A stretch of DNA of 64,000 bases from a virus (lineage: Duplodnaviria; Caudoviricetes). The notes beneath the pieces are model-generated. The model saw only the letters and a program-made list of their open reading frames with translations. It ran no database searches and had not been told where the DNA came from. Within the stretch, counting starts at the first letter, position 1. The number at the start of each line of letters is the position of its first letter. Location of the stretch: positions 32,001-96,000 of the IMG/VR virus record IMGVR_UViG_3300033069_001185; one strand, 5' to 3'. Position numbers and translations under genes: made by a program. This document shows, in pieces, positions 57,936 through 64,000 of the stretch.

Positions 57936-59066
57936 TTACGCCGATTGTTCTTCTACCAAGGTTTCGTTCACTTCAACCGAATCAGGACGCTTCCGGTGGT
58001 TGGTTAGCTCTCGCTTACGAACATCTGCAAGCACTCTTTGGCAAAGATCTGGATCTTGCTTTAGAGCAGCCAGCAAAGCCTTCTGGCCAGTCCACTTGTT
58101 TCCCTCAAACGTATAGCTCATTGAGGTAGGCTTTTCAATCGATTTCCGACCCACACCCAGAATAAGAGCTTCTTCGTGAGTATTGATAATACCGAAGTCG
58201 TAGTCCAGAGTGAACTCCCCAACACGGTTCTTCGGCCCTAGAGAAGAATTGACCATCTTGACTCTGACTTTATGCCCAGTACGTTCTGAGTTGTCCATGA
58301 AGTCCGTCATTTCTTCGTTTTCTAGCTTGTTCCCCTCAAGATTGGTTCGACCTTCTTTTGAGAGGTTGGGTTCAACCATCATGAAGTATTCGCAGAAGTG
58401 CTGAACACCGAAAGCAACCGCTGCTTTGGTTTTTTCGCCTCGCATCTGAGCCGCCATGTCCATCTGGGCACGCAACTGAGCCGTAATAATAAGGCTGATC
58501 TTGTATTTTCGAATGACAGGAAGAATGCGTTTCAGGCCTTTTTGGTAAGTCATTGCTTCGTCACCGATTTGTTGGACTAGCACAGAGTCAGCGTTTAGGT
58601 TTCGAATGCCCTGAATACCAGACAGTGAGTCAATGATAATGAGCTTGATCGGAGCCCCTTCTTCGCATAGGGCAGCTACATCCTTTTCAATGTAGTCAAA
58701 CACCTTATCTGGCTCGTTGGTCTGTTCGATTTTGTACCGGTCTATATCAATACCGAAGTTCTGTGCTGCCTCGTCCAAGTCGTTCATCTGGAAATGGTCT
58801 CGGAACTCAGTATCGAACTTGATAGCAATAGCCTCGGGATCTGCTTGGTGTAACTTACCTACGAAACTGTTACAAATTACGGTCTTGCCTGCCTTGGGAG
58901 GGCCATACAGTAGTAGAGTAGCTCCTCTTGGCAAACCCCAACCCTTACCGAATGTAAAGTTGAGCGACGGGCTATGGGTTTCAAGGACTTCGGCATGTAC
59001 ATTGTATCGATCTTTGATAGCGTTTTCAGATTTAAGGAGTTTGTCCATCCATTTGTTTTTACTCAT
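57936..59066 (-). CDS. recA: RecA/UvsX recombinase
   Basis: GPPKAGKT, FDTE, IIDSL. Confidence 0.88.
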   Translation of the reverse strand: MSKNKWMDKLLKSENAIKDRYNVHAEVLETHSPSLNFTFGKGWGLPRGATLLLYGPPKAGKTVICNSFVGKLHQADPEAIAIKFDTEFRDHFQMNDLDEAAQNFGIDIDRYKIEQTNEPDKVFDYIEKDVAALCEEGAPIKLIIIDSLSGIQGIRNLNADSVLVQQIGDEAMTYQKGLKRILPVIRKYKISLIITAQLRAQMDMAAQMRGEKTKAAVAFGVQHFCEYFMMVEPNLSKEGRTNLEGNKLENEEMTDFMDNSERTGHKVRVKMVNSSLGPKNRVGEFTLDYDFGIINTHEEALILGVGRKSIEKPTSMSYTFEGNKWTGQKALLAALKQDPDLCQRVLADVRKRELTNHRKRPDSVEVNETLVEEQSA

Positions 59067-59081
59067 ATTTTGTGAATCCTC

Positions 59082-59618
59082 TTAGTATCTGGTTTTGCCA
59101 AAATAGCCTTGAGTGGGTGACGAATCTGGACCGGGAAGGCTCATTTTCGCATGGAAACTATCCCCAAGGATTTTCTTGACAGCGGTATATGACATTTCGA
59201 TTGACTTCTTCTTGCCTTCTAGTAGGGTTTTGAATGAATGTAGTATCGTTTCGGTTTCTTGTGCAGATTGATAGTCGGGATCCAGATCAATAATTGCCTG
59301 TCTGGTGGTCTCGTTGGTCTGTAAGCCTCTCTCTTTCAGGATTGAGGGTACTTTATCCAGTACGATAACCGCCTTGATTTCTCTGGATTTACGACAGGCT
59401 GTCTCGTATTCGTACTCAACAGCCGACACCATCGAAACAAGCTCCGCATATGCTTGGTTGAAAACCGCCATCAACTCCGGAGCTTTACCCGGAGTGATGG
59501 ACGCGATTTCTTCCGTTCTGTTTTCTGCAAAACGGATAGCCTTCATATCAAAAACCAGAGGTTCTGAATTAGGTAAACCTCTGGGGATTGACAGTTCGTC
59601 TTTACTTTGCATTGGCAA
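59082..59618 (-). CDS. helical protein, possibly UvsY-like recombination mediator
   Basis: Between SSB and RecA; IIDLDPDY helical pattern. Confidence 0.45.
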   Translation of the reverse strand: MPMQSKDELSIPRGLPNSEPLVFDMKAIRFAENRTEEIASITPGKAPELMAVFNQAYAELVSMVSAVEYEYETACRKSREIKAVIVLDKVPSILKERGLQTNETTRQAIIDLDPDYQSAQETETILHSFKTLLEGKKKSIEMSYTAVKKILGDSFHAKMSLPGPDSSPTQGYFGKTRY

Positions 59619-60594
59619 AGCTCTTTAGAAAGTCATCGGCACTGGCCGGGAGACTCGGAGAGGGTTGTACTGGTGCTGACTGGACCACCTGTTGAGTAAC
59701 CTTGGGCTCCATCTGAGGAATCGCCATGGTGGGAGTGGTAGTGGCAGGAGTAGGTGAAGCCTCCCTCTTTCCTTGGGCAAATACCGCAGCGGCTACGTTC
59801 AGATCACCAGCGGAATCGACGAGGCTACGAATCTGGGCATAGGTGAGCTTCGTCGTACACTGAGTCAGGTCTACCAATGCGTCGATCTTCGCAGCGTCCT
59901 CTTCTACTAGAGGGGCTGACTTGATTACCTTAGCGCTCTTGCCGTCCGGTAAGGTTATAACCTCCAACATTACTTCAACGTCGGTATCGGCCTGACTACC
60001 CTTTAGACCGTTCTTGGTGAACTTGAAGAAAACGCCAGTTTCAGCGTCTAGGGCATGGATACCTTCCTCCTTGACCAAGCGCTTCATCTTTTCTTCTAGC
60101 TTCAGCTTGACTTTGTGACCAAGAAGAAGAACGTTCCACTCGCCCGACATGTTCTTGGCATAGCAATACCACTTATTGTCAAGGTTGTGTTCTTGGAGCC
60201 ACTTCTGGAATGGCAATAGTGCATTTTTGATAGCATCAGCACTCCGGCCTTCTCCTTGCATCTTGACCCGCAAGGATTCCATCATGTTCTTCTGCTCTTC
60301 GATCTTCCGACACTCCGGACACTCTTGCTCAACCAGCTTGGTCTTGTAGTTGACCTTCTCGATGCACTCGAACGGTTTGGCACGAACCTTGTCTGGACTT
60401 CCATCCACTGCTACGCCGTAGCCGAAATGGATCTTGTGGAATGTTGCAAACAGGCCCTTTTCCAACAATGACCGTACTGGAGGTGCAATACGGTAAATGT
60501 TATCCTGTCCTTCCTTGATTTTGTAAAATGGCTTATACGTACTATTACTGCCGTTCTTGTTGCCGTCTAGGTTTACTTTTCCGAAATAACTCAT
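59602..60594 (-). CDS. single-stranded DNA-binding protein (gp32-like)
   Basis: NIYRIAPP...H...C...CPEC; low-complexity tail ending ADDFL. Confidence 0.7.
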   Translation of the reverse strand: MSYFGKVNLDGNKNGSNSTYKPFYKIKEGQDNIYRIAPPVRSLLEKGLFATFHKIHFGYGVAVDGSPDKVRAKPFECIEKVNYKTKLVEQECPECRKIEEQKNMMESLRVKMQGEGRSADAIKNALLPFQKWLQEHNLDNKWYCYAKNMSGEWNVLLLGHKVKLKLEEKMKRLVKEEGIHALDAETGVFFKFTKNGLKGSQADTDVEVMLEVITLPDGKSAKVIKSAPLVEEDAAKIDALVDLTQCTTKLTYAQIRSLVDSAGDLNVAAAVFAQGKREASPTPATTTPTMAIPQMEPKVTQQVVQSAPVQPSPSLPASADDFLKSFANAK

Positions 60595-60599
60595 AATAT

Positions 60600-61328
60600 T
60601 TAGCTTCCTTTTAAGTATTTTTTGATATCGTTGAACATCTTTAGTGCTTCGCTATTGTATGATTCAGGTTCTTTTGCTACAGTGTGTTTAATGTACTTTG
60701 ACCGAAACAGCGTTTTACCAAGCCAGTCCTGTTCGGTCTCAGGAACGTTCTTGACAAGAACAACGGTTACTTTGTCCTTGATTTTTTCAGCCAAAGCCGT
60801 TTTATGTACGGCTCCTTTCAGATACGACTGTTGTAGTTTCTTGCCATTGGCAAGCTCTACGATGCCTTTTACCACGGCATGGAGTTGGCTATCCGAATTA
60901 ATTTCAACGTTATCCATGGCGGATAGGCTGATTTCAAACTCTTCGCCAGTCGCACGGCCATAGTCAGATAATTCTTTAACGATAGCGTTGTATTGCGCTG
61001 AAGCGAATAGATTGGCTATGCTCATTGTTTGTCGAGTTCGATCGGCTAGCAATCTGTAGCATTCTTCTCCATCTACAACCATTGCTCCTAGCTCTTTTGC
61101 GGCCTCGGAAAGGTTCTTCTGCTGATCGGCTGTACCAGACACAAACGCGAGAACGACTGTTTGATCGAAAGCTTTTAGGTATTTCGCCTCAAGCTCTGGC
61201 TGTGCTCGGATTGCGTCTTGTTGGCGCATGAGCCTTCCGGGTCTCGTTGTCAAATCTCCTAGAATTTCTGCTTCGATGGCCTTTTTGTTTTCTGAAAGTT
61301 CTTGTACAATACTTTTCAAGTCGCTCAT
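60600..61328 (-). CDS. hypothetical protein
   Basis: 242-aa ORF in replication cluster with ATGA overlap. Confidence 0.65.
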   Translation of the reverse strand: MSDLKSIVQELSENKKAIEAEILGDLTTRPGRLMRQQDAIRAQPELEAKYLKAFDQTVVLAFVSGTADQQKNLSEAAKELGAMVVDGEECYRLLADRTRQTMSIANLFASAQYNAIVKELSDYGRATGEEFEISLSAMDNVEINSDSQLHAVVKGIVELANGKKLQQSYLKGAVHKTALAEKIKDKVTVVLVKNVPETEQDWLGKTLFRSKYIKHTVAKEPESYNSEALKMFNDIKKYLKGS

Positions 61329-62584
61329 TCTGATGATTCCTCTTTTGATTCTTCTGGAATTACTCCGTTAAATGCTGGCTGTAAGATTTTTGCAGACAGC
61401 AACTTTATAGGTTTATCAGGTTTTTGCAAAACTTTCAACAAAACAATTGAACCTTCTGCTGATTTAATGTTACAATCCCAATCGACTAGCTGTATACGAA
61501 CCCCATCAACATCGTAGATTCTATCAATAGAAGTCTTCACTTCCCCGTCTTTTTTGAAAGTAAAGACTCTTTCTTCTACTACGAAAGCAAGAAAACAAGC
61601 TTCGTAGCCCTGAATGGGCATCAAGTGACCTTTAGTCTGTAGCATTTCCAGACCGTCACCACCCAATATTACCACAGGATTCGCTCTACCATACTTCTGT
61701 TCTTGGTACTCATAGACCACAGACATTGTTCCGGCGTAGTTCTTTAGCCTAGAGGTTATCTGGCTAGGGAACTTCTTTGCACAAATAGGCCTAATGTCCT
61801 TAACATAGGTTCCATTGATCTTCTTTTGTAACTGGAACTGGTCCAGTTCGTCGATCTTAAGGTATTCATCAGCTATCGACTTCTTAGTCTTCTTGGTTCC
61901 TAGAATTACCTGAGCAGACGTTTCGTATAGCTTAAGCTTGTCGTAGAGGGACAGATCTTCTGGGTTATTGAAAAGGCCGTCCATAGCGCCAGAGATAATA
62001 AGCGTAGTTGCTACTTTGCTATTGACAGCAGACAGTGCCTTTTTCTTTGATACAGTTTTTACAAGTTGCCCATTCTTTTCGGCAGTCTTGGTAACCATCG
62101 TTGCGTTTTTGTTTCTGTGCTCTTCAATCTTGTTGAGAAAGTCCGTAACGGAACTGTACGGAGCGCCTTGCTGGATCTGGTTGTGGGCCTTTTCTCCGAT
62201 CCCGTGTAGCATTGATATAGGTGCTCGAATCTTGCCGTCCACAATATCAAAATTACTACCGCTATAACGGATATCCGGAGGTTGAACCAAATGATGGCAG
62301 TATTGCCAGAACTTTGTATCAATCTCGTTCTTATCTGCATTGCGAAGAATGGCGGTCCACCATTCAAGAGGATAATGGTGTTTTAGCCAAGCACAAGCAT
62401 ATGTAATATGGGAGTACCCAACGGCATGGCTTTTGCAGTTGTGCGCCACGCTGCCATTTTCCAGTATAAAGTTGTGGTTTTTAGGAACTGTAATGTCGTA
62501 AACTTCTCTTTTTCCTAGAGACTTTATTGACTTTATCTTGAGCGTCTTGAATGGACGCTTCTGGCCTTCTTCCGTAGAGGTCAT
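61325..62584 (-). CDS. dnaE: split intein C-half (49 aa) fused to DNA polymerase III alpha C-extein
   Basis: VYDITV..NHNFIL.NG.VAHN then CKSHAVGYS..TY..AWLK.HYP; HhH GIGEK; GGAG upstream of ATG at 62584. Confidence 0.92.
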   Translation of the reverse strand: MTSTEEGQKRPFKTLKIKSIKSLGKREVYDITVPKNHNFILENGSVAHNCKSHAVGYSHITYACAWLKHHYPLEWWTAILRNADKNEIDTKFWQYCHHLVQPPDIRYSGSNFDIVDGKIRAPISMLHGIGEKAHNQIQQGAPYSSVTDFLNKIEEHRNKNATMVTKTAEKNGQLVKTVSKKKALSAVNSKVATTLIISGAMDGLFNNPEDLSLYDKLKLYETSAQVILGTKKTKKSIADEYLKIDELDQFQLQKKINGTYVKDIRPICAKKFPSQITSRLKNYAGTMSVVYEYQEQKYGRANPVVILGGDGLEMLQTKGHLMPIQGYEACFLAFVVEERVFTFKKDGEVKTSIDRIYDVDGVRIQLVDWDCNIKSAEGSIVLLKVLQKPDKPIKLLSAKILQPAFNGVIPEESKEESSE

Positions 62585-63539
62585 ATAGTTGCTTCTCCCA
62601 TAACTGATGTTCTCCTTCCCAAAACACCGCGTAGGCATACCCCTCTCCGATCGCGATATCTTTCTTTGCTTTATCGTTTTTGATGTTTCTCTTTACCAAC
62701 TCTACCATAGAACCAGTTTTGCTGGTAAGCTTATGCCAGAAATCGCCATGCATCTCTATCAGGCAGTTAAGCTTTGGACTAAAGATATCGAATGATTTGT
62801 TTCTTAGCTTAAATTCAATAGTGGCGTCGGGATCTAGTGTTTGTATCAATTCAAACAATACTCTGTGAGGAAACGTCACTCTCCATCTAGAAATCAGATT
62901 CGAGGCAGAGAACGCCGCTGCTCTTTTGCATTTATCGGAAGCCTTCTGTCCTATAGATATTCTACGGCCTCTCTTTTCTTTTAAAAGCCGGTCCAAAACG
63001 GTCATGTCGTAGTCTGCCGATCTCAAAAAAAGAGTCCTAAAATTGACTATATCATCTTCGTCTGAAAACAAGAACATAAAATTAGGAAACTGCCGATCTA
63101 CTAGAGGCTTGAGGTCTTTAAAGCAAAGATCGTTGTACAAAAAATCTTCAGACATTAACGACAGAAACTCTGTAACTTGCTGTTTTGTATAAGGAAAGCT
63201 CTTGCTTAGCACAGAAGGATTGAGTGCCCCTCTTCTAGAGATGCCAAGCTTATCCGAGCCTTCCGGTGTCATTACTCCGATATTTCGTGGAGAGACAAAC
63301 GACCAGTCTTCTATCGTTGTTTGTCTCCGCATAACAGAAATCCACCAGTCGGTGTCTCTTTTTGCGGAGACCCCCTCCGATCTTTTCCACGCCCATTCAT
63401 GGTCGGTTTTTGTAGCAAACAACTCTTTCAGCTCTGCTTTTCTCTCTGGGCCGAGAGTGCATTTAGGGCTTTGGGTGTGTATTTTTGCTGTGTTGCTGCT
63501 TATTTCTTTCCCGCAGTCGCAAGTGATTCTTCTTGGCAT
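62481..63539 (-). mobile_element. free-standing Vsr/DUF559-like homing endonuclease between intein halves
   Basis: FDIF...LIEMHGDFWH...NDKAK...GY..AVFWE; N-terminal CxC..H..C; GGAGG RBS. Confidence 0.82.
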
Positions 63540-64000
63540 TGAATAAAGACCTCCGTGTCTTTATTCAAGATTAGGTCTTTTAGTGTAACCCACTCGCCTT
63601 GATATAAGAATTTATGATCTTCGGTAGCCTTGATCGTAGATCCGTCTTCCAGTTCAATCTCAAACACTTCTTTGATTCCGCTAGAAAACTTGGCAGAAGG
63701 AATGATATATTCTGTCTGGTTTGTCTCCATATCCAGACTCAAGACTGATATTTCTCCTTTCGACTTGACCAAATCCTCCATTCTCATAGGACCGACGTTT
63801 GTCACTATCTTTTGGTCTCCGTCGATACAAAAACCGTAATTTGCAAACGTCACCATCATCTCCCACAAACGCTCTGCTGTCTGCTGGCCCAGCTTTGGAA
63901 TGGCTCCGTTCATAAAGACAGAACGATCTGCCAGAACTTTGGCCAACTGTTTCTTCGAAGTATGAACCCGAAAGTTATCCGCCTCGGCCCCTGTGGTGTT
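63500..64000 (-). CDS. dnaE: DNA polymerase III alpha N-extein (partial) plus split intein N-half (109 aa, 63829-63503)
   Basis: Open to window end (AEADNFR...LWEMMVTFANYGF), then CIDGD...IKATEDHKFL (intein blocks A and B), then stop. Confidence 0.92.
   Translation of the reverse strand, partial: NTTGAEADNFRVHTSKKQLAKVLADRSVFMNGAIPKLGQQTAERLWEMMVTFANYGFCIDGDQKIVTNVGPMRMEDLVKSKGEISVLSLDMETNQTEYIIPSAKFSSGIKEVFEIELEDGSTIKATEDHKFLYQGEWVTLKDLILNKDTEVFIQCQEESLATAGKK

Follow-up and report, generated by a model that had tools for sequence, protein, structure and literature searches.

A dnaE gene probably fractured by a split intein and a Vsr-like endonuclease gene in a Caudoviricetes genome

Introduction

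Among the 26 fractured loci described by Dassa et al. (2009, NAR 37:2560, PMC2677866), three are located in dnaE, each at an integration point of its own, and one of the three, DnaE-2 of the Global Ocean Sampling (GOS) data, has a Vsr-like endonuclease of more than 315 amino acids (aa) with the nuclease domain at its C-terminus. In that study, the 3′ end of the endonuclease gene was found to overlap the gene for the C-terminal intein half (IntC) by 6–69 bp, and hairpins were noted upstream of the endonuclease genes; in the model proposed there, a mini-intein is first invaded by a free-standing endonuclease, which disappears at a later stage. This model predicts the endonuclease target to be the intein-coding allele and not the bare dnaE. 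We have analyzed here a 64,000-nucleotide (nt) stretch of DNA, hereafter called the window, which corresponds to bases 32001–96000 of a 128-kb virus record in IMG/VR (IMGVR_UViG_3300033069_001185; Caudoviricetes); the DNA past the window end was read from the sequence L003. The polymerase gene dnaE at the right end of the window is very probably a fractured gene as Dassa et al. use the term: namely, a mobile cassette composed of the N-terminal intein half (IntN), an EDxHD/Vsr-like endonuclease gene, and IntC would be inserted in the DnaE motif YGFNKSH, between F and a Cys residue replacing the Asn. A first-pass annotation of the window had regarded such an architecture as already known, and rightly so, given that a fractured dnaE with a Vsr-like endonuclease was described in 2009 (PMC2677866).

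Results

At the right end of the window, three overlapping open reading frames (ORFs) on the minus strand encode the N part of DnaE, an endonuclease, and IntC followed by the C-extein. Two adjacent host ORFs on the same strand were thus found, one ending with IntN and the other starting with IntC, and the endonuclease ORF lies between them. The parts of the locus are as follows.

63830–64000, minus strand: end of the dnaE N-extein (piece 2, fingers domain; ends in FANYGF), with query residue 388 on Taq F813 in phmmer alignments to Taq and E. coli Pol III α
63503–63829, minus strand: IntN, 109 aa, with the Cys1 codon at 63829–63827, the stop codon at 63502–63500, and T-E-D-H as block B
63539–63568, minus strand: perfect 12-bp RNA hairpin with a 6-nt loop, from RNA folding
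62481–63539, minus strand: free-standing homing-endonuclease ORF, 352 aa, in a frame different from that of both intein halves
62490–62885, minus strand: predicted Vsr-like (EDxHD) catalytic domain, endonuclease residues 219–350, from the predicted fold and hhalign
62438–62584, minus strand: IntC, 49 aa if the ATG at 62584 is the start, ending in HN, with block F and G motifs and the final Asn at 62440–62438
61325–62437, minus strand: dnaE C-extein, 370 aa plus stop (Cys-Lys-Ser-His and 366 further residues), with Cys+1 at 62437–62435

Piece 2 of dnaE runs past the window end to a GTG start at L003 4994, and the N part becomes a 497-aa ORF (the 388-aa extein and IntN) once the L003 DNA is added. 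The C-extein includes an HhH domain (Pfam HHH_6 match) and the C-terminal region. The endonuclease ORF shares 40 nt with the IntN ORF and 104 nt with the IntC ORF, and GGAGG is located 10 nt ahead of its ATG. IntN and IntC are in one common frame; the former is acidic (21 D/E versus 12 K/R) and the latter is basic (5 D/E versus 9 K/R). An alternative start for IntC is available at an upstream in-frame ATG (62638). In the first-pass annotation, dnaE had been described as broken at YGF/CKSH by IntN, an out-of-frame endonuclease, and IntC, and every one of those features was indeed found where it had been placed; the residue counts (109 and 49 aa), the acidic/basic charges (21/12 and 5/9), and the overlaps (40 and 104 nt) were exact on recount, and the ribosome-binding site (RBS) GGAGG at 10 nt before the endonuclease ATG and the shared frame of IntN and IntC could be read from the sequence as well. 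When promoters and terminators were scanned, the number of sites was no higher than in shuffled sequence.

The insertion site was located on DnaE by phmmer alignments to solved structures, in which the N-extein ends on F813 of Taq Pol III α and the C-extein starts on N814 with Cys+1 over N814. The proposal that Cys sits in place of the conserved Asn of YGFNKSH is hence borne out by the alignment of Cys+1 with Taq N814. Also, some extein residues are left in the Ssp DnaE intein structure 1zde, and its FAEY falls on FANY here, which puts the cyanobacterial site two residues upstream of the present one; the Taq Pol III α and 1zde alignments thus agree with the earlier description of an insertion two residues downstream of the cyanobacterial DnaE site. 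Insertion between Y and C of (E/G)YCFNKSH is not the case here; the insertion is after F. The present intein would then be related to the cyanobacterial DnaE split-intein allele and yet not be the same allele.

Ligation of the two exteins is predicted to give a product of 758 aa (388 + 370), and we noticed that intein-less proteins of just this length exist: P0008 and P0158 (758 aa; NCBI and Logan assemblies) align end-to-end with the predicted product with 0 gaps and 24–27 mismatches, corresponding to 97% identity, and have the junction YGF-C-KSH and no cassette. Indeed, the C-extein is 97% identical to residues 389–758 of P0008. To the extent that sequence comparison can tell, this shows the spliced sequence to be a viable polymerase, because a cassette-less close relative carries the same sequence with Cys, and it likewise shows presence and absence of the cassette to be polymorphic among near-identical phages. 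At the +1 position, Asn is found in 79 and Cys in 11 of 94 intein-less representatives. The intein-less Cys alleles noted were P0008, P0158, P0054, P0061, P0076, P0087, P0090, P0095, P0106, P0113, P0116, and P0133, and such alleles would either have been left behind as scars when an intein was precisely lost or be receptive to an intein. The DNA of a P0008-type allele was looked for in viral contigs with a degenerate junction pattern, which had no match, and the search of metagenome and genome contigs with P0008 was also empty.

As to the chemistry of splicing, the class-1 residues are all present, i.e., Cys1, TxxH (T-E-D-H), Asp/His in block F, the terminal HN, and Cys+1, and they are kept in the alignments with relatives that are 40–51% identical and with contiguous mini-inteins. 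When the sequences in PDB were searched with phmmer, IntN hit DnaE inteins at an E value of 1e-9, and IntC hit the IntC of Ssp and Npu DnaE at 6e-8; DnaB inteins were hit at 3e-6, and the cyanobacterial DnaE inteins were about three orders of magnitude better for IntN. The split inteins gp41-1, gp41-8, NrdJ-1, and IMPDH-1, which come from fractured genes and are used as tools for being fast natural split inteins, were hit by neither half in the PDB sequence search at E values up to 0.1. The break point of the intein is in the same loop as in the cyanobacterial Npu/Ssp DnaE split inteins. Furthermore, an exhaustive HMMER search with the C part revealed four contiguous mini-inteins of 125–141 aa (P0010, P0029, P0057, and P0059) at exactly this F/C site, two of which share the first six residues of the present IntN. 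IntN and IntC are colinear with these mini-inteins, and the break corresponds to the loop where the mini-inteins have a linker of 7–20 residues.

The ORFs, the splicing residues, and the intein matches accordingly support what had been proposed in the first-pass annotation, a naturally split class-1 intein with a free-standing Vsr-like endonuclease in a fractured dnaE. Its further suggestion of a likely independent intein, in contrast, did not hold: among solved structures, both halves are closest to the Npu/Ssp DnaE split inteins, the break loop is the same, and related inteins are staggered in the same motif, as described below. As to the orthogonal trans-splicing tool that the first-pass annotation thought this pair might become, cross-reaction with Npu DnaE is a real possibility, given the relatedness of the two inteins.

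The order of the IntN stop, the endonuclease ORF, and the IntC ORF is repeated in six diverged viral contigs (L005, L010, L011, L012, L014, and L015). In L005, the three ORFs are in three different frames, and the endonuclease in the fractured relatives always begins with its own Met. L004, a close relative of L005, keeps both halves with an 81-nt spacer containing a stop codon and an RBS and with an ATG-led IntC; the spacer (L004 5869–5955) retains ~20 nt from the start and ~35 nt from the end of an L005-type endonuclease gene and has an 8-bp inverted repeat. By its sequence, L004 is a deletion derivative of a fractured locus. Also, stand-alone genes of IntC and the C-extein at the present site comprise at least 13 protein clusters (50% identity), and several stand-alone IntC genes start at the Npu IntC start point. 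Bacillus phage G gp339 was considered as a possible carrier of IntC and was rejected for being intein-less. The endonuclease ORF is of full length in other JGI and Logan assemblies with 98% identity.

These observations bear on the concern that the real gene has a contiguous intein with an in-frame endonuclease and that two compensating frameshifts, introduced in assembly or sequencing, made three ORFs of it. IntN and IntC being in one frame with an endonuclease ORF overlapping both would be consistent with such an artefact, but the same layout recurs in six diverged contigs, with three frames in L005, the endonuclease always has a Met of its own, independent assemblies contain the 352-aa ORF uninterrupted, both halves are present without the endonuclease in L004, and stand-alone IntC genes begin at the Npu IntC start. 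We thus consider an artefact very improbable; that is, the split is judged not to be one because of the recurring layout, L004, the stand-alone IntC genes, and the intact endonuclease elsewhere.

The endonuclease has an N-terminal Cys/His cluster, in which Cys7, Cys9, and His21 are invariant, followed by a helical region and then the C-terminal nuclease domain, where D251, E262, H264, H269, and D289 are invariant among seven homologues (31–98% identical). An AlphaFold2 model was built on these seven homologues with a mean pLDDT (predicted local distance difference test) of 83.6, and residues 219–350 of the model were aligned by VIA-align with Z of 10.4 to Vsr 1cw0, 9.3 to 1vsr, and 9.1 to I-Bth0305I 3r3p; the top Foldseek matches of the model were Vsr, i.e., the same entries. 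In hhalign, furthermore, E. coli Vsr was matched with an E value of 3.5e-5 and a probability of 72%, which places D251, H269, and D289 on D51, H69, and D97 of Vsr. E262 falls on F62 of Vsr, the position of the family-specific Glu in Dassa et al. (PMC2677866). Because of the Vsr fold match and the catalytic residues aligned on Vsr, the endonuclease is predicted to be a member of the EDxHD family that adopts the Vsr fold, has Asp/His/Asp in place, and presumably cleaves DNA. No match to the endonuclease was obtained by tblastn against cultured phages.

The hairpin at 63568–63539 encloses the Shine–Dalgarno sequence and the A of the endonuclease AUG; its stability is −15.6 kcal/mol with a z score of −3.28, and none of 200 shuffled sequences was as stable. 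No comparable hairpin was found in L005, and the hairpin is hence not family-wide. An RBS buried by a strong hairpin, together with the loss of the endonuclease in relatives (L004), might indicate that the cassette is fixed and that the endonuclease is no longer active in homing, being either domesticated or on the way to being lost. We consider this unlikely, though it deserves some weight: none of the catalytic residues varies among the seven homologues (31–98% identity), and the cassette is present and absent among phages with 97%-identical exteins, which fits recent gain or loss.

The prototype of the endonuclease family, I-Bth0305I, is encoded in an intron (PMC3239194), and it might be supposed that the endonuclease ORF resides in a group I intron within the intein-coding sequence so that RNA splicing restores a contiguous intein. 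No Rfam intron family was matched, nonetheless, even at E values up to 1, and the group I intron was rejected on this account. The endonuclease ORF overlaps both intein ORFs, moreover, and in L004 the halves are separated by no more than 81 nt, in which a stop codon, an RBS, and an ATG are found; we give this possibility next to no credence.

Inteins that are 40–51% identical to the present one, most of them with homologous endonuclease genes, were found at three points of the same motif, following F, N, and SH(S/A). In the fractured loci with homologous endonucleases, the endonucleases are 29–34% and the inteins 40–47% identical to the present ones; L005 and L014 have an after-N junction, whereas that of L010, L011, L012, and L015 follows SH(S/A), and L004 has the after-N junction with the endonuclease gene reduced to a remnant. 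P0125, known from IntC alone, has an IntC ~65% identical to the present one (hand count from the sequences) at the cyanobacterial Y/C site. All of the staggered sites are within nine residues of the one DnaE motif, and in every case Cys+1 substitutes one extein residue so that the length of the motif is unchanged. In an intein tree of 13 sequences, the N/C inteins formed a supported clade, with split and contiguous members together; the monophyly of the F/C or SH(S/A)/C inteins was not resolved in this tree. The K/S site of the motif is occupied by a different intein group, mostly with Ser1/Ser+1 and often long. A contiguous DnaE mini-intein with Cys1 and Ser+1 was also seen at FNK/SH in a gut phage contig (L008 980–3478; MT835601.1), and this site differs from that in the window. 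In L012 (4474–4980), the ORF of IntC and the C-extein is only 169 aa with no visible continuation on the same strand; the C-extein there may be broken again or truncated.

It is tempting to regard Y-G-F-N-K-S-H-S/A as a landing strip for one Cys1/Cys+1 intein lineage that includes the cyanobacterial DnaE split intein, with the intein-free F/C Cys alleles being scars of precise loss or pre-adapted sites; this idea is put forward tentatively, and we would rather bet against it than for it. If it is true, the homing cycle's steps of gain, shift, and loss are on record in this phage group. A literature search on “sliding intein” or PDB entry 7QIL gave nothing useful, and Novikova et al. (2016) do not discuss DnaE sites.

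Besides the break at the intein, dnaE is split in the palm domain, and the gene consists of three coding pieces and the endonuclease gene. The palm split, which has no intein, is at L003 4981–4994 (genome 96980–96993), ~980 bases past the window end. A separate 552-aa ORF upstream carries the PHP domain together with the first palm half and stops ~30 residues beyond the catalytic PDIDLD, and the 497-aa piece has a GTG start, a 14-nt overlap, and ~12 extra residues. This point of the palm is continuous in the DnaE of Myxococcus phage Mx1, the closest cultured relative, whose DnaE is unsplit and intein-less (1289 aa) with QYGF-N-RSH at the site. Many representatives of 750–830 aa including P0008 start at the second piece, because of which the palm split seems to be conserved in the clade and not to result from a sequencing error.

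The same dnaE therefore has a break without an intein and with short extra peptides at it, and a fragmented ribonucleotide reductase is documented to assemble non-covalently through domains that stem from mobile elements (PMC3045599). By analogy, the intein halves might be non-splicing relics that act as a clasp, with the dnaE pieces being joined non-covalently as at the palm split. We find this improbable: the locus has the complete set of Cys1, TxxH, block F, HN, and Cys+1, relatives of 40–51% identity have kept the set as well, and the +1 Cys is otherwise in the minority in the DnaE clade (11 of the 94 intein-less representatives).

Directly downstream of dnaE (57936–61328, minus strand) are genes for a 242-aa protein, a 330-aa SSB-like protein, a 178-aa protein, and a 376-aa RecA-like protein. 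The downstream order of a hypothetical protein, SSB, and a RecA-like protein is also found in Myxococcus phage Mx1. With the SSB-like and RecA-like genes downstream, recombination genes that would service homing adjoin the cassette. No match to the whole locus was obtained by blastn against cultured phages.

Discussion

Taken together, the cassette in this dnaE is probably a real and working element. After translation, the acidic IntN and the basic IntC would associate and trans-splice, by which the 388-aa and 370-aa exteins would be joined into a 758-aa polypeptide, and this polypeptide would function together with the 552-aa PHP/palm piece, which is encoded separately. In co-infection, the endonuclease would cut alleles free of the cassette or of the endonuclease, and recombination would copy the cassette in. 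The hairpin over the RBS would hold down translation of the endonuclease, which may be released by ribosomes that cross the hairpin while translating the IntN ORF, or else through the use of a shorter transcript.

Several points weigh against this reading of the locus as a functional fractured gene. Splicing, cleavage, and expression are all matters that we infer. Both halves score below the cut-off of Pfam Intein_splicing (PF14890; 32.7 bits for IntN and 31.1 bits for IntC against 35.8), although this is expected for half-domains, each of which covers half of the model. Searches of Pfam and PDB with the endonuclease, by single-sequence and profile HMMER, gave nothing meaningful, the rows of FliS and MoaC being dismissed as noise, and the family call hence draws on the predicted fold and the hhalign profile match. 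The start codon of IntC could be either 62584 or 62638. Also, non-covalent assembly is evidently possible in this polymerase, given the palm split.

While our knowledge of inteins and of polymerases is unchanged by the locus, the set of sequences available for comparison is unusually complete, namely the 97%-identical intein-less allele, contiguous mini-inteins at the same site, and relatives with the endonuclease and with its deletion. The gene-breaking model of 2009 has contiguous, fractured, and endonuclease-deleted stages, and each of these is seen among the relatives. The locus also adds one natural split intein pair (Cys1/Cys+1, 109 + 49 aa, with the native flanks GF and CKS) to the family that is mined for protein-ligation tools. 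Annotators should note that the three or four ORFs here make up one polymerase.

Among known systems, the cyanobacterial Ssp/Npu DnaE inteins share with the present intein the host protein, the motif, the Cys1/Cys+1 chemistry, the break point, and the combination of an acidic IntN with a basic IntC. The cyanobacterial insertion is, however, after Y and not after F, the halves are encoded far apart with no endonuclease, and the genes are cellular and not those of a phage; the sequence similarity is moderate and limited to the conserved intein blocks. I-Bth0305I (PMC3239194; 3r3p) has in common with the present endonuclease a C-terminal Vsr-fold nuclease with Asp/His/Asp and an N-terminal DNA-binding region. 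That enzyme is located in a group I intron of recA and not between intein halves, whereas the N-terminus of the present endonuclease opens with the Cys/His cluster, and no direct sequence match is detectable between the two. The gp41-1, gp41-8, NrdJ-1, and IMPDH-1 systems have the same genomic architecture in other host genes.

In conclusion, the closest likeness is to DnaE-1, DnaE-2, and DnaE-3 of the GOS data, with which the present locus shares the broken dnaE, the split intein, the endonuclease gene between the halves, and integration points different from the cyanobacterial one; DnaE-2 is furthermore alike in its Vsr-like endonuclease with the C-terminal nuclease domain. The overlap between the endonuclease and IntC genes and the hairpin before the endonuclease are also common to the GOS dnaE loci and the present one, and the overlap here (104 nt) is longer than the published 6–69 bp. 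As the three were compared by their published description, identity with one of them is neither shown nor excluded. Every element of the locus, as deduced from the DNA, fits the description of fractured genes given in 2009.

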